From: an uncultured Agathobaculum sp.
GTDB lineage: Bacteria > Bacillota > Clostridia > Oscillospirales > Butyricicoccaceae
Reading direction: 5' to 3'
Assembly (NCBI GenBank): GCA_944384765.1
Contig: CALWUM010000006.1
Coordinates: forward strand, 17,799 to 81,798
Length of the DNA stretch: 64,000 nt
A program made the translations under genes and the position numbers. The notes under the pieces are model-generated. The model was not told where the DNA came from. It saw only the letters and a list, made by a program, of their open reading frames with translations, and did not search any database. This document shows positions 3,007 through 63,691 of the stretch, piece after piece. Each line of letters begins with the position of its first letter. Positions within the stretch are counted from its first letter, which is position 1.

Positions 3007-4575
3007 TTACCAGCCGAAGAACGGGAACGGGCTCTGGTAGTAGCCGCCGCTACTGCTGTCATCCTGAGTGCTCTGGTTGCTCTCGGTCGCCGGGTCGTCA
3101 CCCTCCAGGTCGTGCGCATCCATGAGCGTTACGGTGATGTTGAGTGTCTTGCCGGTCGAGAGACGGTAAACGGTCAGGGTGATCTTGTCGCCCGCCTGTT
3201 TATTCTCCTTGATCTCGTTGACATCGTCCATGGTCGGGGTCGGCGTACCATCGACTGCCGTGATCACGTCGCCGACCTGCAGGCCTTCGCTCGCCGCTGT
3301 GGCACGCGAGTCAATTGAGTATACCTGTACACCGGCGATGCTGCCATCGGCGGACTCCACATTGCGGCCCGTGATGCCGATAGTCGGACGGCCGCTGACA
3401 TAGCCGTTGGCAATCAGCTCATCGACAACGTCCTTTGCCGTGTTGATCGGGATCGCAAAGCCCATGCCCTCAATCGTGGTGTCACTGTATATACTGCTGG
3501 ACAGTTTAGCCGACGTGATGCCGACCACCTGGCCGTATTTATTGATGAGCGCACCACCCGAGTTGCCCGGGTTGATGGACGCGTCGGTCTGGATCAGGGT
3601 CATGACGCGGTCGTTGATGGTCACGTCGCGGTTGATGGCGGAAATGCGGCCGCCGGTGATCGTGTTGGCAAACTGCACACCGCCGGGCGAACCGATCGTA
3701 TAAGCGTATTCACCGGGTTCGAGGTCGTCCGAATCGCCGAACTCAGCCGGGGTCAGCTCGGTATCCGTGGTCACCTTGATGACCGCAAGGTCGGTCTGCT
3801 CATCCGTGCCGACGATCTCCGCATCCAGCTGGGTGCCGTCGCTCAGCTGAACGGCTACCGCCGTCGCATCCGCGACAACATGGTCGTTGGTGATGATGTA
3901 GCCATCCTTACTCATGATGACGCCCGAGCCACTGCTCGTGCCGCTGTCCATCGAGGCGATGACCGATACAACAGACGGGCTGACCTTCTTGTAGATCTCC
4001 TCGCCTGCCAGGCCGTTGACCACATCGTAGTTATCCGGGTCCAGCTCAGGAGTGTCGCTGATCTCCAGTGTCGGCAGCTCGCCGCTGTCTGTCTCCGCGC
4101 TCGCGCTGACGGCCGCGCCGTCTCCGTCGCCAATCACATGGCCGAGCACCGCGCCGCCTGCAAACAGCAGGCAGGCCGCTGCCACGCAGCACAGGCCGAT
4201 CACAACCGCCTTACCGTGCCCCTTCTTGTGAGGGGGCTGGGCGCCGCCGCCGCTCAGATCGGGCTGCGGCGCGGAATAGAAGGTTTCCGTCCGCGGCGCC
4301 TGGTAATCCGGATGCGCTACCGGCGTCTGATACGGGGTACGCGGCTCCTCACTCTGCGTGGAGGGCTGCTCACCCTGCGCGCCATACGGCTGCTGCGGCT
4401 GCGCTTCCTGCTCTCCCTGCGGGGTAACAGACGGTTCATCCGAGACACGATACGGCGCCTGTGCGGACTGCTGTCCGCTCTCCTGCGGCTGTGCCGCCTG
4501 CTGTGCTTCGGGCTGTTCCATATTGTCATCGCCGCGCGGGGCAGGCGTATAGTTGTTATTATTGAAGTCGTCCAT
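3007..4575 (-). CDS. htrA: HtrA/DegP-family serine protease (S1C) with C-terminal PDZ domain, one TM segment and a Q/P-rich N-terminal region
   Basis: GSGVIMSKDGYIITNDHVV (His region) and NPGNSGGALIN (Ser region). PDZ-like LQVGDVITAVDG. Hydrophobic segment VVIGLCCVAAACLLFAGGAVL. Confidence 0.9.
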   Translation of the reverse strand: MDDFNNNNYTPAPRGDDNMEQPEAQQAAQPQESGQQSAQAPYRVSDEPSVTPQGEQEAQPQQPYGAQGEQPSTQSEEPRTPYQTPVAHPDYQAPRTETFYSAPQPDLSGGGAQPPHKKGHGKAVVIGLCCVAAACLLFAGGAVLGHVIGDGDGAAVSASAETDSGELPTLEISDTPELDPDNYDVVNGLAGEEIYKKVSPSVVSVIASMDSGTSSGSGVIMSKDGYIITNDHVVADATAVAVQLSDGTQLDAEIVGTDEQTDLAVIKVTTDTELTPAEFGDSDDLEPGEYAYTIGSPGGVQFANTITGGRISAINRDVTINDRVMTLIQTDASINPGNSGGALINKYGQVVGITSAKLSSSIYSDTTIEGMGFAIPINTAKDVVDELIANGYVSGRPTIGITGRNVESADGSIAGVQVYSIDSRATAASEGLQVGDVITAVDGTPTPTMDDVNEIKENKQAGDKITLTVYRLSTGKTLNITVTLMDAHDLEGDDPATESNQSTQDDSSSGGYYQSPFPFFGW

Positions 4576-4607: not shown

Positions 4608-4661
4608 ATTGTATTGCCCCATTGTGGCAGTTTGTTGAAAACAATATGAATATTTTTTGAA
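4608..4661 (-). promoter_or_regulatory. htrA promoter: three TTCA hexamers at 11 bp phasing, then N20, then TACAAT
   Basis: Minus-strand hexamers TTCAAA (5' T at 4661), TTCATA (4650) and TTCAAC (4639). Exactly 20 nt separate the last hexamer from TACAAT (4613-4608). No canonical -35 at 17 nt. Confidence 0.6.
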
Positions 4662-4725: not shown

Positions 4726-6186
4726 TTATGCCTGCGGTTTGCTGCCCGGCAGCTGTGCCGGCGCGAGTGGCAGCGTGAACGAGAACTCGGTCTCACCGCC
4801 GTCCGAGCGAACAGCGATCTCGCCGCCATGCAGGTTAATGATGTTTTTAACGATGTACAGCCCCAGCCCCGCACCGGTCTTATCCATCGAGCGCGAGCGG
4901 TCGGCCTTGTAGAATCGGTCGAAGATGTGCGGCAGATCCTCCTCCGAGATCACCGTGCCCGTGTTGCTGATCGAGAACGCACAGAACGTGCCCTCCGGAT
5001 GCGCATGCAGGCACAGGCGGCCGCCGTCATCGATAAACTTGACCGCGTTGTCCACCAGGTTATACACCGCGCGGTACAAGTGGTCGCGGTCGCCCATGAC
5101 CATCAGGCGGTCCTCCAGATCGCACTCGACCGTAAGCTGCTTTTTCTCGATCTTCTGCTCAAAGGACAGCAGGATCTGCGCGGTCATTTCGGAGAAATCC
5201 ATCGGCGCGGGGTTGAGGATCAGCTCGCCCGACTGGATTTTGGCCGCGTCCAGCATACGGTTGACCATGCGGGACAGGCGGCGGGTCTCCTCGGCGATGA
5301 TGTGCAGGTATTTATCCCTCTGGTCCGAGGGGATGGTGCCGTCGATCATGCCATCAACAAAGCCACCGATCGTGGTCATCGGGGTTTTGAACTCGTGGCT
5401 GACGTTGGAGATAAAGCCGCGCGTCAGCTCCTCGAGCTGGTCGAGGTCACGCGCCATGTTGTTGAAGGAGGTTGCCAGCTCGTCGATCTCGTAGCAGTGG
5501 TTGTCCTCGGGTACGCGCACCTCAAAATTGCCCGCAGCAAACTCCTTGGCTGCCGCCGCCATCACCTTAAGCGGCCGCGTCATATGCTGGGACAAAATAA
5601 ACGAGATAATCAGTGCGACCACAAGCGTTACCACCAGGATAAGCACCAGCGTCTGTGTGGAGTGGCGCACCGTGCCGGCCGCGGCGGCATCCTGTGTGTT
5701 GATAAACACCATGGCGGTGATCTGGCCGCTGTCATCCAGCACACTCGTGCCGACCGTGTAGCTTGACTGTGCCCCGATCACGCCCAGCTGGCCGACCTCG
5801 GCATAGCTGCCGGTCTCTCGAACCTGCGCGACCGCGGAAGCGGGCATGGCATACTGACGGTTGTATTCCGCCACCGTGCCGTTTGTGTCTGCCGCCATCT
5901 GGATCACGCCGTCCGCATCGGTCACGCAAACCGAGATAACGTCCTCTTTGGCCACACGGCCGATGGACAGCATAAAGATCTGCCGGATAATGTCCGAATC
6001 CGTGCTTTGCATCAGCTTGGTCTGCTCGGCCAGGCTCTGCACGGTCGTGCGCAGCTCGGCCTGCTTGGAGGCAAGCGCGTAGTTGCTCATCTGATAGTAA
6101 AACACACCGCCCGCCACCGTGAACGCGCATACGATCAGCACCAGATGCGTGACATAATTTTTAAAGAAAAAACTGCGTCTGCCCAT
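4726..6186 (-). CDS. Sensor histidine kinase (two TM segments, periplasmic loop, HAMP, HisKA, HATPase_c)
   Basis: H-box FISNVSHEFKTPMTTI. N/G boxes VDNAVKF and DKTGAGLGLYIVKNIINLHGG. Two hydrophobic segments flank a ~150 aa loop. Confidence 0.9.
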   Translation of the reverse strand: MGRRSFFFKNYVTHLVLIVCAFTVAGGVFYYQMSNYALASKQAELRTTVQSLAEQTKLMQSTDSDIIRQIFMLSIGRVAKEDVISVCVTDADGVIQMAADTNGTVAEYNRQYAMPASAVAQVRETGSYAEVGQLGVIGAQSSYTVGTSVLDDSGQITAMVFINTQDAAAAGTVRHSTQTLVLILVVTLVVALIISFILSQHMTRPLKVMAAAAKEFAAGNFEVRVPEDNHCYEIDELATSFNNMARDLDQLEELTRGFISNVSHEFKTPMTTIGGFVDGMIDGTIPSDQRDKYLHIIAEETRRLSRMVNRMLDAAKIQSGELILNPAPMDFSEMTAQILLSFEQKIEKKQLTVECDLEDRLMVMGDRDHLYRAVYNLVDNAVKFIDDGGRLCLHAHPEGTFCAFSISNTGTVISEEDLPHIFDRFYKADRSRSMDKTGAGLGLYIVKNIINLHGGEIAVRSDGGETEFSFTLPLAPAQLPGSKPQA

Positions 6187-6192
6187 GTGGGT

Positions 6193-6873
6193 TTACTCCT
6201 TGGTTTCAAATTTATAGCCAACGCCCCAGACGGTCTTAAGCTCCCATTTATCCGAAACGCCCTCGAGCTTTTCGCGCAGGCGCTTGACGTGCACATCCAC
6301 CGTACGGGTGTCGCCGAAGTAGTCAAAGCCCCACACGTCATCCAGCAGCTGCGCGCGGGTGAACACGCGATTGGGGCTGGAGGCGAGGTAGTAGAGCAAC
6401 TCGATCTCCTTGGGCGGTGCGTCCACGCGCTTACCCTTGATGACCAGATCATACGCCTGCTTGTCGATCACCAGATTGTCGAACGACAACTTCTCGGGCG
6501 CGTCATCCGGCGCCATGCGGCGGAACACCGCGCGTACGCGCGCGATGACCTCAGGCATTTCCAGGGGCTTGACGATGTAGTCGTCCGCGCCCATCTCCAG
6601 ACCGGAAACGCGGTCTGCGGTCTCGCCCTTGGCGGTGATCATGATAATCGGCACGTCGCTTTCCGCGCGGATCTCCTTGCACACCGTCCAGCCGTCCATG
6701 ACCGGCATCATCACGTCGAGCAGGATCATATCCGGCTTTTCGCTCTTCCACTGCTTGATGCCTTCCACGCCGTTTTCGGCCTCGATCACGGTATAGCCTT
6801 CGCGCTCGAGATACAGCCGCAGCAGTTCGCGGATATTGGCTTCGTCCTCTACGATCAATATTTTCTTGGGCAT
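6193..6873 (-). CDS. OmpR/PhoB-family response regulator (receiver plus winged-helix)
   Basis: KILIVEDEANIRELL...DMILLDVMMPVMDG receiver domain. C-terminal FTRAQLLDDVWG...VDVHVKRLREKL winged helix. Confidence 0.93.
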   Translation of the reverse strand: MPKKILIVEDEANIRELLRLYLEREGYTVIEAENGVEGIKQWKSEKPDMILLDVMMPVMDGWTVCKEIRAESDVPIIMITAKGETADRVSGLEMGADDYIVKPLEMPEVIARVRAVFRRMAPDDAPEKLSFDNLVIDKQAYDLVIKGKRVDAPPKEIELLYYLASSPNRVFTRAQLLDDVWGFDYFGDTRTVDVHVKRLREKLEGVSDKWELKTVWGVGYKFETKE

Positions 6874-6905: not shown

Positions 6906-6948
6906 ATTATACCGCCGTTTTGAAAAAAAAGCATTAACAAACTGTTAA
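6906..6948 (-). promoter_or_regulatory. Response-regulator operon promoter with two phased TTAA hexamers at the same N20 spacing
   Basis: Minus strand: TTAACA (6948-6943), TTAATG (6937-6932), 20 nt spacer, TATAAT (6911-6906). Confidence 0.4.
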
Positions 6949-11061: not shown

Positions 11062-11114
11062 AACAAAACTCCACAGATTTTGTAAAAAATAAAAAAGGGG
11101 GAAATCAAATCACA

Positions 11115-12809
11115 ATGTGGGAAAGAAAAGAGGTAAAAACGCGCGGAAAGCGCCAATTCCTGCGCAACTGGGCCGCGATGATCGCCGTGTGCTTTCTGCT
11201 TGCCTTCACAGGCGCGGAGTTTTCCGGCACTGCGGATTTCATCAGCGATTTCAATCCAGCCGCTATGCTGCCGGATGACCAGGTCGTCATCCAGCAGGTC
11301 AGCCTGTCCAACTGGGAACTGCTGCTCGAATGGCTGCATATCGACCCAATGGACGGCACACACCCCATGTGGGCTGCGGCCAACCAGAATGTCGGCCCGC
11401 TGTTCGATACCATAACCGCGCCCTTTTCCGCGTTCTTTGCGCTGCTCGAGCGCTCGCAGTTTGCGGGCTGGCTGGATATTGTGCTCGCTGTCGCGGGCAT
11501 GGCGGGCGGCGTGTGGTTCTCGGTCTGGGTGCTGAGCGCACTGACCGTGGGCGCGCGGCGCTTTTTCCTGGAAAGCCGCGTGCGCGACAACATCAGCATC
11601 GCCGCGATGTTCGTCCCGTTCGGCCGGGGGAATTGGTGGAACGTGACCAAGGCCATGCTGCTGCGCGCGGTCTACATGATGTTATGGACCTGCACCATTA
11701 TCGGCTTTCCGATCAAGTATTACGCCTATCGCATGGTGCCGTACCTTCTCGCGGAAAACCCGCACCTGAAGCCCACGGAAGCGATCCTGCTGTCCCGCCG
11801 CATGATGGACGGGAACAAGTGGCGCTGCTTTGTGCTCGACCTGACGCTCTATCTGCACTGGTCGCTCATCCCGACCGTGCTCGCCGCCATGCTCGGCACG
11901 GGCGCCGGCCTGCTCACGGGCAAAATCGTACTGTGCCAGTCGATTGCAACCGTGCTGACCGGCCTGCTCAGCCTGCTGTTTGTCAATGGCTATAAATCCG
12001 CGGTCTATACCGAGCTGTACGTCGCCCTGCGTCAGGCGCAGATCGATGCGGCTGCGCCGCTGGCCGACCGGTTTACGGTTCCGGCCTTCGGCGAAGCCGC
12101 ACCCACCGGCGCAAAGCCGAGCCTGCCGGATGCGGACGTCCATCTGCCCGAGGACCCGGTGTTCCACTTCGCGCAGCACCACAAGCTCAACTACAACCGG
12201 CATTACAGCATCCGCACGCTCATCCTGCTGTTCTTCGCGTTCTCGATCGCAGGCTGGCTGTGGGAGGTCGCGCTGCACATCGTCACCAAGGGTATGTTCG
12301 TCAACCGCGGCACCATGCTCGGCCCCTGGCTGCCGATTTACGGCGCGGGCGGCGCGATTGTGCTGTTCCTGCTCCGGAAGCTGTTCACCAGGCCGGTCGC
12401 GACCTTTTTCGTGTCCATGGTGCTGTGCTCGATCATCGAATACTTCACCAGCTGGTATCTGGAGTTCACCAAGGGTATCCGCTGGTGGGATTACAGCGGC
12501 TATTTCATGAACCTGAACGGCCGCATCTGCCTGGAGGGCGCGGTCACGTTCGGCCTCGCCTGCTGCGCGGTCGTCTATTTTGCCGGACCGCTGCTCGGCG
12601 GGCTGATCGACAAGCTCTCCCCCGCCAAGCAGAACACCATCTGCGCCGTGCTGATCGCGCTGTTCGCGGCGGACGCCGTGTATTCGCACTTCCACCCGAA
12701 CGAAGGCGCGGGCATCACGGATTACAACGACTGGCAGCCGCAGGACGGCGGCAGCCAGCCCGCAGCCGAAGCGGCACTCAGTGCTTCCACTGCTCCCAGA
12801 CACGGGTGA
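11115..12809 (+). CDS. Polytopic membrane protein, apparent fusion of a DUF975-like N-terminal half and a CmpB-like (putative ABC-transporter type IV) C-terminal half
   Basis: N-terminus MWERKEVKTRGKRQFLRNWAAMI resembles DUF975. The C-terminal half (IAGWLWEVALHIV...GPWLPIYGAGG) resembles Pfam ABC_trans_CmpB. Many hydrophobic segments. Confidence 0.7.
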   Translation: MWERKEVKTRGKRQFLRNWAAMIAVCFLLAFTGAEFSGTADFISDFNPAAMLPDDQVVIQQVSLSNWELLLEWLHIDPMDGTHPMWAAANQNVGPLFDTITAPFSAFFALLERSQFAGWLDIVLAVAGMAGGVWFSVWVLSALTVGARRFFLESRVRDNISIAAMFVPFGRGNWWNVTKAMLLRAVYMMLWTCTIIGFPIKYYAYRMVPYLLAENPHLKPTEAILLSRRMMDGNKWRCFVLDLTLYLHWSLIPTVLAAMLGTGAGLLTGKIVLCQSIATVLTGLLSLLFVNGYKSAVYTELYVALRQAQIDAAAPLADRFTVPAFGEAAPTGAKPSLPDADVHLPEDPVFHFAQHHKLNYNRHYSIRTLILLFFAFSIAGWLWEVALHIVTKGMFVNRGTMLGPWLPIYGAGGAIVLFLLRKLFTRPVATFFVSMVLCSIIEYFTSWYLEFTKGIRWWDYSGYFMNLNGRICLEGAVTFGLACCAVVYFAGPLLGGLIDKLSPAKQNTICAVLIALFAADAVYSHFHPNEGAGITDYNDWQPQDGGSQPAAEAALSASTAPRHG

Positions 12810-19835: not shown

Positions 19836-19875
19836 AGTTAACAACTCCTAACATATCTTTTCTCGTCTGTCTCTA

Positions 19876-19904
19876 AGTATAGCGCATTCCGCCCGCTTTC
19901 GCAA
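19876..19904 (-). promoter_or_regulatory. Promoter of the mrp/nifX-like operon
   Basis: TTGCGA (19904-19899), N17, TATACT (19881-19876). Confidence 0.6.
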
Positions 19905-20049
19905 GGTCGCGCCTTGGCCGTCCCTGCGAAATTTTTGTCAAATTTTCAGAAAGTACCCTTTCCCGCGCGACGGTGCGTATGCAATCGCTTTCCGCCGCGC
20001 AGCGCATCCGATTGTTCTGACCTGCCGCAGCAGGCTGGAACACAAAATC

Positions 20050-20154: not shown

Positions 20155-20299
20155 GCAATGCAAAGCGCCGCTGCCCGTTGGGGGAAACGGGACAGCGGCG
20201 CTTTGCCGATTCACTACACAGATTTGAAAAAGGGGGGTAAAAGAGAAATAAAAGATCGGTTGGCTTGCCAGCTGCGGGATTGCGGCTTCCCTTGCTGAC
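20155..20299 (-). ncRNA. Array unit 5: candidate sRNA
   Basis: Promoter TTCACA (20359) / TTCAAA (20348) / TTCACA (20337), N20, TATACT (20311-20306). P1 GUCAGC/GCUGGC (one G-U). Same inner hairpin and C/U tract. Hairpin 20161-20205. Confidence 0.6.
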
Positions 20300-20396
20300 G
20301 TATTCAGTATACCCCAGCGCCGCCCGATATGTGTGAACAGATTTTGAATAGCCTGTGAAAGATTTGTTGCGTTTAAAACCACAGGCAGCTGCACAC

Positions 20397-20535
20397 AGGG
20401 AAGCGCCCTGTTTCCCATACAGGAAACAGGGCGCAAACCATGCAAAATGAAAAAGAGGGTAAAAAGAAAAGGTGAAAGAAAGAAAACAAAGTGTAAAAGG
20501 AGTTCGCCGGAGGGAAGGTGTTTTTCCCTTCCGAC
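20397..20535 (-). ncRNA. Array unit 4: divergent variant sRNA
   Basis: Promoter TTCAAA (20595) / TTCAAG (20584) / TTCACA (20573), N20, TATACT (20547-20542). P1 GUCGG/CCGGC. Inner hairpin AGGGAA-aaacacc-UUCCCU. Longer, different C/U tract. Hairpin 20403-20434. Confidence 0.55.
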
Positions 20536-20624
20536 AATGATAGTATACCGTATCCTGCCCACTTAATTGTGAACGATTCTTGAACATACTTTGAAAGGTT
20601 TTTTACAAATCCCGCGCCTGTCCG

Positions 20625-20768
20625 GATACGGCAGGGCGCCCCGCTCCATAGGGGGATGGAACCGGGGCGCCCTGCTGTCATTCACAAAATAGAAAAAAGG
20701 GGGGTAAAAGAGAAATAAAAGATCGGTTGGCTGTCTGCCGACTTGGGATTGCGGCTTCCCTCATCGAC
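20625..20768 (-). ncRNA. Array unit 3: candidate sRNA
   Basis: Promoter TTCAAA (20828) / TTCAAA (20817) / TTCACA (20806), N20, TATACT (20780-20775). P1 GUCGA/UCGGC (one G-U). Same inner hairpin and C/U tract. Hairpin 20631-20675. Confidence 0.6.
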
Positions 20769-20854
20769 ATACTTAGTATACCGCACAAAACGGCCGGATT
20801 TGTGAACCGTTTTTGAACAGTCTTTGAAGGTTTTTTGACCGTGGTTTCCCCGAC

Positions 20855-20995
20855 CGGACAGGAAAACACCCCGGCTGTGCAGCAGCTGCAAAACCAGGGT
20901 GTTTTCTGTCATTTCACAATTATAGAGGGGGTAAAAAAGAGAAAAAAGATCGGTAGGCTGTCTGCCGGTTTAGGATTGCGGCTTCCCTCACCGGC
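20855..20995 (-). ncRNA. Array unit 2: candidate sRNA
   Basis: Promoter TTCAAA (21055) / TTTACG (21044) / TTCACA (21033), N20, TATACT (21007-21002). P1 GCCGGU/ACCGGC. Inner hairpin GGGAAGCCGCAAUCCU (G-U only on the minus-strand reading). C/U tract, then hairpin 20861-20906. Confidence 0.6.
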
Positions 20996-21079
20996 ATTTT
21001 CAGTATACGCCTGGAGCGACAGATAAGTGTGAACGGGACGTAAACAGACTTTGAAAGGTTTGTGACCCGGCCCGCACGG

Positions 21080-21221
21080 GAACGGGAAAGCGCCCCGGTC
21101 CGTGGGGGAAACGGAACCGGGGCGCTTTCTGTCATTTCACAAAATAAAAAGGGGGGTAAAAGAGAAATAAAAAGATCGGTAGGCTGTTTGTCGGTTCGGG
21201 ATTGCGGCTTCCCTTATCGAC
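21080..21221 (-). ncRNA. Array unit 1: candidate ~140 nt sRNA
   Basis: Promoter TTCACA (21281) / TTCAAA (21270) / TTCATA (21259), N20, TATACT (21233-21228). RNA has P1 UGUCG/CGACA around AGGGAAGCCGCAAUCCC, then tract CUUUUUAUUUCUCUUUUACCCCCCUUUUU, then hairpin 21086-21129. Confidence 0.6.
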
Positions 21222-21289
21222 ATGCTTAGTATACCCCATTTCCCCGCCGAGTATATGAACAAAATTTGAACGGCCTGTGAAAGAATTGT

Positions 21290-26403: not shown

Positions 26404-26633
26404 GATGCAGGCATATCTTGATGAAACGCCGTCTGTCCTGCGTATATTCTGTCTAATCTGCACGTTTTTTCGACTCGCTCATGCGCAGATCGCACAAATA
26501 GCCTGCGGCCGCTTTTTGTGAAAAAACGCCTTTGTAATTTTTTCATTTTGCCCGTAAAATAAGGATAGATCCGCAAGATATAGATATTTACGCGGTGATA
26601 TCTCTATATATTGAGAAAGAGAGGCGTTCTCAC

Positions 26634-39091: not shown

Positions 39092-39597
39092 TCTGCTTTT
39101 GCCTCTTCCTCTTCGTTTTCGCGCTGAAGCTCCTCCATGTCCACATATTCCTCCACCTTTTCGGTGAACAGGTGGCCGTCCAGGTGTTCGGTCTCGTGGC
39201 AGAAGCACTGGGCGACAACGCCCTCGCCCTCGCGCTCAAACCAGTTGCCGAACCGGTCCTGCGCACGGATCTTGGCCCAGGTCGGGCGGGTGACATAGCC
39301 GTATACACCCGGCACGGACAGGCAGCCCTCAATGATGCGCTGCTCACCGCGCTGCTCGATCACCTCGGGGTTAACCAACTCGACCATTTCCTCGGGATCC
39401 TTGTTGATGTCCAGCAGCACGACCACGCGGCGCAGCACGCCGACCTGCGGCGCGGCCAGTCCCACGCCGCCCGAGTTTTCCAGCGTCTCGCGCATATCGT
39501 CGATCAGCGTGTGCAGGCGCGCGTCGAATTTCTCCACCTTGCGGCTGTGGCGGCGCAGCTGCTCGTCTTCCTGGGTTAAAATGTTGCGAAGTGCCAT
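39088..39597 (-). CDS. def: Peptide deformylase
   Basis: GVGLAAPQVG, EGCLSVPG and HETEHLDG motifs. Confidence 0.95.
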   Translation of the reverse strand: MALRNILTQEDEQLRRHSRKVEKFDARLHTLIDDMRETLENSGGVGLAAPQVGVLRRVVVLLDINKDPEEMVELVNPEVIEQRGEQRIIEGCLSVPGVYGYVTRPTWAKIRAQDRFGNWFEREGEGVVAQCFCHETEHLDGHLFTEKVEEYVDMEELQRENEEEEAKAE

Positions 39598-48441: not shown

Positions 48442-48561
48442 CACATAACCCTTTCCCACCGCCCGTTCGAGGGCGGCCATATTGATTCAATCTATTCTAC
48501 CGAACTTTTGCGGATAACACAAGGGATACCCGCGGAAAATCGGTAAAAATTCACAAAAAAT

Positions 48562-58016: not shown

Positions 58017-59380
58017 TTCTGCATCTCCTCCGGCTGGAAGATATCCTGCAGGTCGTTCATACCCTTGCGGGTGGAAACAACAATGACGGTGTCGCCCTCG
58101 CGCAGCTCATCCTTGCCGCGGGGAATGATGCGCTTACCGCGCCGGTTGATGCAGCACAGCAGCACATCCGGGCGGATAGGCATATCCTGCAGCGGCACGC
58201 CGGTCAGGTCATGCGCCGCCACACGGAACTCGAGCGCCTCCGCGCCGCCGCCCAGCTCGTGCAGGGTTTCGACGTTTGAGCCCATGGAGTTCTGCATCGC
58301 GCGGGTGTACTGACCGATCAGCTCGGCTGTGGTCTGCTTGGGGCGGATGATGGTGCCGATAGGCAGGCTCGAGATGACCTCCTCGAAGTTGACGCGGTTG
58401 ACCTTGGTGAACAGCTTGGCCTTGGAGTGCCGTCCCGCGTGCAGCGAGAGCAGGATGTTCTCCTCGTCCATGCCGGTCAGCGCGACGAACGCCTCGCACG
58501 AGGCAAGGCCCTCCTCGTCGAGCAGGTCACGGTCGGTGCCGTCGCCGTGAATGATGGTCGCGTCCGGCAGCAGATCGCTGAGCTGCTCGCAGCGCGCCAG
58601 ATCGCTTTCAATGATCTTGACCGCAATGCCCGAGGCCAGCAGCATTTTCGCCAGGAAATACGAGATCTTGCCGCCGCCGATCAGCATGGCCGAGTCAATG
58701 CGGTCATTCGGCACGCCGATCTTGCGGAAAAACTCCGCCTGCTCGCGCGGCGGAATGATAACCGTGATATCGTCCCCGGCCATCAGGATGAAATCGCCCT
58801 TGGGGATATAGGTCTGGCCGCCGCGGCGCACCATGCACAGCAGCACGTCCGAGCGCAGCAGCGGGTTGACTTCGCACACCGCCATACCATTTAGGCGGGA
58901 GTCCGCGGGGATACGGATGTCGAGCAGCTCGATACGGCCCTTGGCAAAGGTACCCACACCGATCGCGGATGGAAAGCGGATCAGGCGGGAAACCACGCGG
59001 GCGGTGGACAGCTCGGGATTGACCACCATGGACAAGCCGAGCTCATCGCGGATGAAACCGATTTCAGAAACATACTGCGGGTCGCGCACGCGCGCGATCG
59101 TGTGGCAGCCGGACGCCTTGCTGGCGATCAGGCAGGAGAGCAAATTGATCTCGTCGTGCGTGGTGACCGCGATCAGCAGGTCGGTGTCCTTGACCCCGGC
59201 CTCCTTGAGCACATGATAGCTGGTGCCGTTGCCGGCCACAGCGGCAACATCCAGCATATTGGACAGTTCGTCCAGCCGTCGTTCGGATTTGTCGACCAGT
59301 GTCAGGTCGTGTCCCTCTGCAGAAAGCTGCTCGGCAAGGGCCGAACCGACCTTGCCGCAGCCTACAATAATGATGCGCAT
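58013..59380 (-). CDS. trkA: Trk system potassium uptake protein TrkA (tandem RCK domains)
   Basis: MRIIIVGCGKVGS and a second GGGKIS Rossmann motif. 455 aa. TTGCAA-N17-TATAAT promoter upstream (about 59442-59470). Confidence 0.92.
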   Translation of the reverse strand: MRIIIVGCGKVGSALAEQLSAEGHDLTLVDKSERRLDELSNMLDVAAVAGNGTSYHVLKEAGVKDTDLLIAVTTHDEINLLSCLIASKASGCHTIARVRDPQYVSEIGFIRDELGLSMVVNPELSTARVVSRLIRFPSAIGVGTFAKGRIELLDIRIPADSRLNGMAVCEVNPLLRSDVLLCMVRRGGQTYIPKGDFILMAGDDITVIIPPREQAEFFRKIGVPNDRIDSAMLIGGGKISYFLAKMLLASGIAVKIIESDLARCEQLSDLLPDATIIHGDGTDRDLLDEEGLASCEAFVALTGMDEENILLSLHAGRHSKAKLFTKVNRVNFEEVISSLPIGTIIRPKQTTAELIGQYTRAMQNSMGSNVETLHELGGGAEALEFRVAAHDLTGVPLQDMPIRPDVLLCCINRRGKRIIPRGKDELREGDTVIVVSTRKGMNDLQDIFQPEEMQK

Positions 59381-59531
59381 GGTGCGCCTCCGATCTTTTT
59401 TCTTTATCCCTGAAAATATACATAGCGATTATAGTCTCTTGTCGGACAAATTGCAAGATGTATCTATGGGAAATTAGCGGACTATTAACACGGTTTTGCC
59501 GCAAATCCAAAACTTTTTCAGAGTAAACAGC

Positions 59532-63540: not shown

Positions 63541-63691
63541 GGTTGGGGTGCTCCTTTCGCTTTGCATATTATCCGCCTTTATTATAGAGGATGCGGACGC
63601 CAGATAGCAAATATATATAAGATATGCAAAATATATTTGAAAAATATAGATCTCGGCGCTATACTGGTCTCAGAAAGGGGTGAGACCGGAT

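Follow-up and report, generated by a model that had tools for sequence, protein, structure and literature searches.

A putative regulon of tandem small-RNA genes, htrA and a two-component system in Agathobaculum

We analysed a tandem array of five units that lies directly downstream of a dnaI-like gene in DNA from an uncultured Agathobaculum sp. (contig CALWUM010000006.1; the whole stretch of 64,000 nucleotides is here called the window). Each unit is very probably a regulator-dependent gene for a small RNA (sRNA). In the promoters of these units, direct hexamer repeats precede the -10 box at a fixed distance, and the same layout is found upstream of htrA and, in a reduced form, upstream of the neighbouring gene for an OmpR/PhoB-family response regulator. 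The best explanation of these observations as a whole, to which we assign a probability of about 0.68, is that this regulator activates its own operon, htrA and the sRNAs, and that the RNAs pair with messenger RNAs (mRNAs) at ribosome-binding sites. The parts of this explanation differ in confidence: it is likely that the regulator in question is the one encoded beside the kinase and htrA, and action through base pairing at ribosome-binding sites is favoured somewhat less firmly.

The window has a G+C content of ~62%, and the nearest named relatives of its DnaI-like protein and of the sRNA motif belong to Agathobaculum spp., which points to an Agathobaculum-type origin (Butyricicoccaceae, Clostridia). 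Read along the minus strand, the genes are pnp (25455-23332), one with a DnaB_2 domain, the dnaI-like gene (22294-21290), a gene-free region of ~1.1 kilobases (kb), and an mrp/parA-type gene (19844-19017). Alignment resolves the gene-free region into five tandem units of 225-235 base pairs (bp), of which Tandem Repeats Finder detects a part; the array extends from 21281 to 20156 on the minus strand. The promoters that concern us are as follows, where N5 and N20 stand for any 5 or 20 nucleotides (nt).

21228..21281, minus strand: promoter of unit 1, TTCACA-N5-TTCAAA-N5-TTCATA-N20-TATACT, a layout kept in 104 units
21002..21055, minus strand: promoter of unit 2, TTCAAA-N5-TTTACG-N5-TTCACA-N20-TATACT
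20775..20828, minus strand: promoter of unit 3, TTCAAA-N5-TTCAAA-N5-TTCACA-N20-TATACT
20542..20595, minus strand: promoter of unit 4, TTCAAA-N5-TTCAAG-N5-TTCACA-N20-TATACT
20306..20359, minus strand: promoter of unit 5, TTCACA-N5-TTCAAA-N5-TTCACA-N20-TATACT
4608..4661, minus strand: promoter of htrA, TTCAAA-N5-TTCATA-N5-TTCAAC-N20-TACAAT, kept in three related loci (L047, L048, L049)
6906..6948, minus strand: promoter of the regulator-kinase operon, TTAACA-N5-TTAATG-N20-TATAAT, with two degenerate boxes, i.e., the array geometry minus one box

A preliminary description of this DNA had placed the hexamer starts at 21281/21270/21259, 21055/21044/21033, 20828/20817/20806, 20595/20584/20573 and 20359/20348/20337, and these positions are exact on the minus strand. 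The distance of exactly 20 nt between the proximal hexamer and TATACT in every array unit, and the presence of the same layout at 4661-4608, were likewise reproduced; this promoter is 32 nt upstream of the htrA ATG (4575). The description had named two deviant hexamers. Both TTTACG in unit 2 and TTCAAG in unit 4 are indeed deviant, but they are not the only ones, as TTCATA (21259-21254) in unit 1 is a third. The degenerate middle box TTTACG recurs in unit 2 of a related array (L003).

To search the window for this architecture, we used the pattern TTYA-N7-TTYA-N7-TTYA-N22-TANANT, with 100 dinucleotide-preserving shuffles as a control. There are six matches in 64 kb, namely the five units and htrA, versus 0.00 in the shuffles. 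To count these as six independent sites, as was done earlier, is not valid: the promoters of the array are paralogues that all derive from a single duplicated unit, so the six occurrences are really two independent ones. We consider that the significance of the promoter match stems from the match at htrA and from conservation across species.

The same description spoke of a non-sigma70 spacing, which is misleading. The -10 box (GGTATACT) is of the ordinary housekeeping type. The hexamers are boxes for an activator and directly adjoin the -35 position, a placement common among activators of the OmpR/PhoB type. The units have no usable -35 box, but instead carry three TTCA(C/A)A direct repeats in 11-bp phase. 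At 17 nt upstream of the -10 box, the sequence is ACAcaT, i.e., without a consensus -35, and a scan for sigma-70 promoters called none of the five array promoters (0/5). If transcription starts ~7 nt after the -10 box, the hexamers fall at about -38, -49 and -60. Direct repeats roughly one helical turn apart, at a fixed distance to the -10 box, are present in all units considered below (104/104) and at htrA.

Conservation of the array was investigated in other genomes. Three loci reached via DnaI homologues contain 5, 3 and 4 units. When one genome per species was scanned for the RNA motif ACCGATCTTTT...CTCTTTT...YCCC, 40 stretches were obtained, ~30 of which belong to Agathobaculum or to assemblies with a loose label (Butyricicoccus, Clostridiales or Eubacteriales); the remaining ones are single chance matches in unrelated phyla. 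The site directly downstream of dnaI is kept in ~30 genomes. In two more distant genomes (L005 and L006, with 72% and 64% DnaI identity), dnaI is followed by just one unit, whose promoter is the same, and a Butyricicoccus assembly (L004) has no unit at the dnaI site. A profile search gave 113 units, 104 of them non-identical, which we registered on the -10 box; these 104 stem from ~30 Agathobaculum-type genomes and from the two more distant ones (L005, L006). Their promoter consensus is aAcAAatC-TTTCAcAG-N4-TTcAAA-N5-TTCACAcaTt-(about 14 variable nt)-atGcGGTATACT. In this set, the best-conserved positions of the hexamers, like those of TATACT, carry at least 1.8 bits of information, and the spacer carries ~0. 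We take this combination of fixed boxes and a drifting spacer to be a phylogenetic footprint, and not a result of shared recent ancestry. One further 11-bp step upstream of the first hexamer, A residues are nearly invariant, which would be compatible with a degenerate fourth repeat (nnnAnA) or with an A-tract. No further match to the three-box motif was found in 340 kb of Agathobaculum-type DNA.

The number of units per array varies from 1 (L005, L006) to 5 across the arrays L001-L046, the last of which belongs to the cultivable strain A. desmolans ATCC 43058. In the four arrays that were fully read (those of the window, L001, L002 and L003), the order of the first unit, a variant unit that we call type B, and the last unit does not change. 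In L001, whose array has five units, the two in the middle are near-identical, which suggests that the middle units, of the common type A, are the duplicated ones. No transposase adjoins the array in the three loci for which genes were called.

The candidate activator and the genes next to it are the following.

6193..6873, minus strand: gene for an OmpR/PhoB-family response regulator, the proposed activator (Response_reg 4.9e-34, Trans_reg_C 2.9e-27)
4726..6186, minus strand: gene for a sensor histidine kinase (HAMP, HisKA, HATPase_c) with ~195 residues N-terminal to HAMP
3007..4575, minus strand: htrA, encoding a trypsin-like serine protease with a PDZ domain, 522 amino acids (Trypsin_2 8e-35, PDZ_2 1e-12)

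These genes are arranged in the order regulator-kinase-htrA on one strand, and the regulator gene is 14 kb from the array. We found no second OmpR/PhoB-type regulator in the 64-kb window. The closest solved relatives of the regulator in PDB are RegX3, MtrA, BaeR and PhoP. An attempt to name it was given up, as NCBIfam and PDB provide only generic PhoB/MtrA/RegX3-type similarity and no equivalog.

A metagenome scan with the regulator yielded 80 related loci, and the regulator-kinase-htrA synteny seen in the window is present in about half of them. In three close loci (L047, L048, L049; regulator 96% identical), the htrA promoter reads TTCAAA-N5-TTCAYA-N5-TTCAAC-N20-TAYRAT, and this layout is retained even in the one locus among them where htrA is inverted. 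More distant orthologues (62-66% identity) whose htrA has its own promoter show two to three TTnAnn hexamers in 11-bp phase, 20 nt from the -10 box (L059, L065/66, L095, L101-103 and L114; L109 has one additional turn in between). Where htrA directly follows the kinase gene, no promoter is present other than that of the regulator gene.

The promoter of the regulator gene (6948-6906) was absent from the preliminary description. Among 67 non-identical orthologous loci, 26 have TTTACA-N5-TTCAnn-N19/20-TATAAT upstream of the regulator gene, compared to 5 of 5039 stretches of 160 nt taken from the same loci as a control. Nearly all matches to this two-box motif in the orthologous loci are upstream of the regulator or of htrA. 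The presence of the same architecture before orthologous regulators suggests autoregulation. Across 62 orthologues, the recognition helix TRTVDVHVKRLREKL shows at least 90% identity, and given such a highly conserved DNA-binding helix, a shared box is to be expected among them. The earlier proposal, in which htrA and the array are both activated by the adjacent OmpR-family regulator, is therefore the reading best supported by the sequence comparisons, i.e., by the footprint in 104 units, the htrA promoters and the ratio of 26/67 to 5/5039. The box appears to be tied to this regulator family, and it predicts autoregulation, activation of htrA and, in Agathobaculum, activation of the sRNAs. Near the orthologous regulator loci of other lineages, no sRNAs of the array family were found.

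The predicted RNAs, read from the minus strand, are listed here.

21082..21222, minus strand: sRNA of unit 1, type A, ~140 nt with predicted ends; 5' hairpin, C/U strand ACCGAUCUUUUU...ACCCCCC, terminator hairpin with UUUCCCCCA loop
20858..20996, minus strand: sRNA of unit 2, type A; its CCGAUCUUUUUUCU is a 14-nt perfect complement of the trkA leader
20627..20769, minus strand: sRNA of unit 3, type A
20391..20536, minus strand: sRNA of unit 4, type B; its 5' hairpin loop differs, and its C/U tract is longer and ends in ACCCUCUUUUUCAUUUUGCA
20156..20300, minus strand: sRNA of unit 5, type A, terminal variant ...UUUUUCAAAUCUGUGUAGUGA

Type B is the last-but-one unit, and the variant represented by unit 5 the last unit, in each of the four fully read arrays. 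In the predicted fold, the 5' hairpin has an outer stem UGUCG/CGACA and an inner stem GGG/CCC, with the loop AAGCCGCAAU in type A. The ~55 nt between the hairpins are predicted to be unpaired and are C/U-rich (ACCGAUCUUUUAUUUCUCUUUUACCCCCC in type A); within them, AGCCUACCGAUCUUUUAUUUCUCUUUUACCCCCC is almost invariant. The terminal hairpin is G+C-rich (-26 to -40 kcal/mol), and its loop UUUCCCCCA, a second C-rich motif, is almost invariant though the surrounding stem varies.

The stems show compensatory changes. In 73 non-identical type A RNAs, one pair of the 5' stem is GC in 51 and AU in 22, and another is AU in 45 and GC in 21. We also made a formal count of covariation in a type A alignment of 27 diverse sequences, in which the pairing partners were slid along the sequence as one control and 500 shuffles served as another. 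Paired cells amount to 89.8%, versus 40-55% with partners slid, and the covariation score is 0.497, versus at most 0.141 with partners slid; none of the 500 shuffles reaches the observed score. These compensatory changes support the view that both hairpins are real structures. An AGGGA-UCUUU pairing proposed by RNAalifold on mixed type A and type B sequences was rejected as an artefact of C/U richness and poor alignment. The RNAs do not belong to a family in Rfam that we could recognize: the whole window has no match at gathering thresholds, and searching the array at E-values up to 10 gave only noise, the best hit being RsaE/RoxS (RF01820) in unit 1 with 19.8 bits, versus a gathering score of 79 (E = 1.8).

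Candidate targets were sought by comparing 52 crude gene starts in the window to the unpaired stretch of the sRNAs. Initiation regions have a mean of -15.7 kcal/mol, versus -13.0 kcal/mol for intragenic controls. The top match is trkA (potassium uptake), which starts at 59380 on the minus strand.

59387..59403, minus strand: trkA leader AGAAAAAAGAUCGGAGG, overlapping the ribosome-binding site, candidate target of type A sRNAs

The sequence CCGAUCUUUUUUCU of unit 2 pairs perfectly over 14 nt with AGAAAAAAGAUCGG (59403-59390), and three extra pairs extend into GGAGG. The core AAAGAUCG(G) (AAAGATCG) recurs in four other Agathobaculum genomes (L127-L130, ~1455-1490), in trkA leaders that are otherwise divergent. 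We regard trkA as a reasonable candidate that is not established, and its being a target as tentative. A second candidate is the gene at 11115-12809, whose product is a membrane protein containing the domains DUF975 and CmpB. The unusual poly-G ribosome-binding site of this gene, AAAAAAGGGGG (11086-11101, plus strand), is complementary over 11 nt to CCCCCUUUUUU of unit 3; two of the related genomes (L001, L002) lack the gene at the syntenic position. The conserved tail UUUUUCAUUUUGC of unit 4 has a 13-nt perfect complement at 26539-26551 (minus strand), across the ATG of a hypothetical frame of 94 codons that has no Pfam match. We discarded this third match as not significant, as 21.6% of shuffles contain one like it.

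If the regulator and the RNAs act as we propose, the phosphorylated OmpR/PhoB-family regulator (6873-6193) would bind the hexamers head-to-tail and recruit RNA polymerase. It would act in the same way, at equal spacing, on the three boxes of the htrA promoter and on the two boxes of its own, so that the kinase, the HtrA protease and the sRNAs would form one regulon. By analogy with the CssRS, CiaRH and LisRK systems, this regulon may have a role in envelope or secretion stress, and would respond to misfolded secreted proteins or envelope damage. The C/U motifs of the RNAs would pair with G/A-rich ribosome-binding sites and thereby block translation, and the multiple copies would raise the dosage and, through types A and B, widen the range of targets.

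It is important to consider a number of observations that weigh against this proposal. Regarding the regulator, no equivalog among the best 25 NCBIfam models reaches its cut-off. The T-tracts after the hairpins are short (UUUCC or UUUUCC, with 3-4 U) and a consensus terminator scan calls none, so the 3' ends and the extent of read-through are uncertain. Regarding the targets, C/U-rich RNAs score well on any purine-rich initiation region. A 14-nt complement anywhere in 128 kb, counting both strands, occurs in 6.7% of composition-matched shuffles of the five RNAs; since the observed one falls on a ribosome-binding site, a chance match of this kind is rarer than 6.7%. In two of the other Agathobaculum genomes (L129, L130), the trkA core is located ~20 nt upstream of the ribosome-binding site. 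A further such point is the resemblance of the boxes to those of another regulator. Bacillus subtilis PhoP recognises TT(A/T/C)ACA repeats in 11-bp phase, which are similar to the repeats found here.

This last resemblance raises an alternative, namely that the boxes are real, but are used by a different OmpR-family regulator encoded elsewhere in the genome (e.g., one that is PhoP-, ResD- or WalR-like), and that the likeness to the htrA promoter merely reflects overlapping specificities. Nearly equal matches of our regulator to the PhoB, MtrA and YycF models, none of them at cut-off, would be compatible with this idea. However, the box and its spacing travel with this particular regulator-kinase-htrA cassette in many lineages, both upstream of the regulator gene (26/67 vs 5/5039) and at the neighbouring htrA, and the DNA-binding helix is conserved among the orthologues of this regulator. 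Moreover, a domain search found no PAS domain in the kinase, unlike PhoR and WalK. We therefore consider a different regulator unlikely. It is also conceivable that the regulation is as proposed, but that the RNAs bind or titrate a protein, or act via the 5' hairpin loop AAGCCGCAAU, rather than by pairing with mRNA. This 10-nt loop is nearly invariant in type A and is left unexplained by pairing of the C/U seeds, multicopy arrays are typical of protein-sponge RNAs such as the multicopy RsmX/Y/Z family, and the target prediction within 64 kb is weak. Yet the loops do not have the repeated GGA motifs, the longest invariant stretch of the RNA is instead unstructured and C/U-rich, and unit 2 has its 14-nt perfect match over a ribosome-binding site. 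The second C-rich motif, in the terminator loop, adds to this, as the same arrangement mediates mRNA pairing in LhrC (PMC4132741). Action through a protein or the hairpin loop thus has a low probability in our judgement.

We attach far less weight to the idea that the units encode small proteins, or that they are remnants of a repeated mobile or duplicated segment whose promoter has been kept merely through recent duplication. An ATG does occur within 12 nt after the -10 box in 70 of the 104 units, and the copy number of 1-5 between genomes might recall a mobile segment. However, the other 34 units lack this ATG, and no conserved reading frame was found: frame lengths scatter between 10 and 56 codons, a ribosome-binding site is lacking, and the lengths of indels are not divisible by three, so we rejected the small-protein interpretation. 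With respect to recent duplication, the boxes, the -10 box, the compensating stems and the seeds are kept across species while the spacers and the stem sequences diverge, which indicates selection and not recency. The single chromosomal site downstream of dnaI in ~30 genomes, with no adjoining transposase in the three gene-called loci, also argues against a mobile segment. Both versions of this idea are accordingly very improbable, and regulator-dependent sRNA genes controlled together with htrA remain the preferred explanation of the array.

Some other sites in the window deserve mention. The preliminary description had noted an extra hexamer pair, TTCACA-N5-TTCATA at 26162-26146 (minus strand), and had remarked that it lacks a matching -10 box; we confirm that there is none 20 nt downstream. 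The pair is ~240 nt upstream of rpsO (25904) and is kept in three related genomes (L001-L003) as well as in the Butyricicoccus assembly L004. It is followed by ATTG..CAATTCGACAA, in a conserved block that extends to rpsO, and ~40-50 nt further upstream of the pair there is a conserved ATTATAGCAC (window, L001-L003). This pair could be an extra site of the regulator on the rpsO-pnp operon, or an unrelated conserved element. Another site, at 48550 (plus strand), has two hexamers without a -10 box and is inside the end of a gene; we set it aside, because chance allows this count.

Downstream of the array, the region 19845-19960 (minus strand) upstream of the mrp/parA-type gene is conserved across species (L001-L003) as …CCTTGCGAAAGCG…GCGCTATACT…. 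It resembles an ordinary promoter, TTGCGA-17-TATACT, with the same TATACT variant of the -10 box as the sRNA genes. Short tandem repeats at 39412-39453 and 63602-63636 (periods 21 and 18, ~2 copies each, from Tandem Repeats Finder) are seemingly unrelated.

Regulation by sRNAs is almost unexplored in strictly anaerobic gut Clostridia, including butyrate producers such as Agathobaculum, and a literature search for sRNAs in Agathobaculum found nothing relevant. The host group consists of abundant and little-studied butyrate-producing gut bacteria. The predictions presented here would provide a ready experimental system, consisting of a regulator box, a regulon core (the regulator-kinase operon, htrA and 1-5 sRNAs), conserved seeds and trkA as a candidate target. 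If they are correct, the box (TTTACA-N5-TTCAnn, 19-20 nt to the -10 box) could serve as a search key for lineage-specific sRNA families in Clostridia. A bolder extension is that the system is a third, independently evolved case among Gram-positive bacteria in which an HtrA-linked two-component system drives multicopy C/U-rich sRNAs, that these RNAs reduce envelope load and reset ion uptake in secretion stress by repressing the mRNAs of trkA and membrane proteins, and that the box is common to many Clostridia. We offer this extension as speculation, and taken in full it is rather doubtful.

A comparison to known systems is instructive with regard to both the arrangement and the regulator. Two of them resemble the array in having adjacent sRNA copies. 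OmrA and OmrB of E. coli are two adjacent duplicated sRNA genes that are driven by EnvZ-OmpR, are Hfq-dependent and affect envelope functions. The NsiR1 copies of Nostoc stand in tandem, each with a promoter and a terminator to itself; they are HetR-dependent and are not known to be linked to envelope stress. Both cases differ from the array described here in phylum, sequence and regulator, and OmrA/OmrB comprise only two copies.

The CssRS secretion-stress system of Bacillus subtilis, which controls htrA and htrB, is similar in its gene arrangement, as in both cases a regulator-kinase pair adjoins an htrA-type gene. To our knowledge, no CssR-dependent small RNAs have been described. The CssR box is TTTTCACA (PMC6749698), which includes the TTCACA core of our boxes; the TTCACA/TTCAAA core found here matches 6 of its 8 bases, and 7 of 8 in cTTTCACA. 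According to the title of Darmon et al. 2002, as cited in PMC12826053, CssRS is autoregulated, which agrees with the boxes upstream of the regulator gene here. The motif TAWATAAA of Streptomyces CutR, which we also considered, is unrelated to our box.

The CiaRH system of streptococci, among them Streptococcus pneumoniae, has an OmpR-family regulator that acts directly as an activator of htrA and of several csRNA genes resembling one another (PMC3091779; PMC12826053). The CiaR box is (N)TTAAG-N5-TTTAAG, 10 bp upstream of the -10 box and without a -35 box (PMC3091779), while the csRNAs are short molecules with a terminator hairpin at the end and with stretches that are complementary to ribosome-binding sites (PMC3091779; PMC12826053). 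With its five csRNAs and htrA, CiaRH shares with our system the direct hexamers with 5-nt gaps and the lack of a -35 box. However, the promoters here are not of the csRNA type, as two TTTAAG at 10 bp from the -10 box are replaced by three TTCA(C/A)A at 20 bp. The recognition helix also differs from that of CiaR, being TVDVHVKRLREKL instead of VVEVYVSKVRKKL (VVEVYVSK(V/I)RKKL). The RNAs have no sequence or Rfam match in common with csRNAs, and here all five genes form one tandem array in a high-GC gut anaerobe of the Clostridia.

LhrC1-5 of Listeria monocytogenes are five copies that are induced by envelope stress via LisRK, a system also implicated in the control of htrA (PMC4132741; PMC12826053). 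They contain redundant C/U-rich motifs, placed in a single strand and in the loop of the terminator, through which they pair with G-rich ribosome-binding sites (PMC4132741), and the use of such unpaired C/U-rich motifs for this purpose is common to LhrC, RsaE/RoxS and the csRNAs (PMC4132741; PMC3091779). The five copies here resemble LhrC in carrying ACCCCCC(U)n in a single strand and UUUCCCCCA in the terminator loop, a resemblance that is only functional: the motif is CCCCC(C) and CUCUUUU rather than CUCCC...UUUU, and the 5' hairpin loop is not C/U-rich. In sequence there is no similarity to LhrC, no Rfam family reaches its gathering score, and no LhrC match appears on the array at E-values up to 10. 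Taken together, these comparisons suggest a recurrent, convergent design, in which a periplasmic-type quality-control protease and multicopy RNAs directed against ribosome-binding sites are placed under one envelope sensor. The array looks like a new small-RNA family within a new example of the regulatory design known from CiaRH-csRNA and LisRK-LhrC, with a regulator-htrA core that resembles CssRS.

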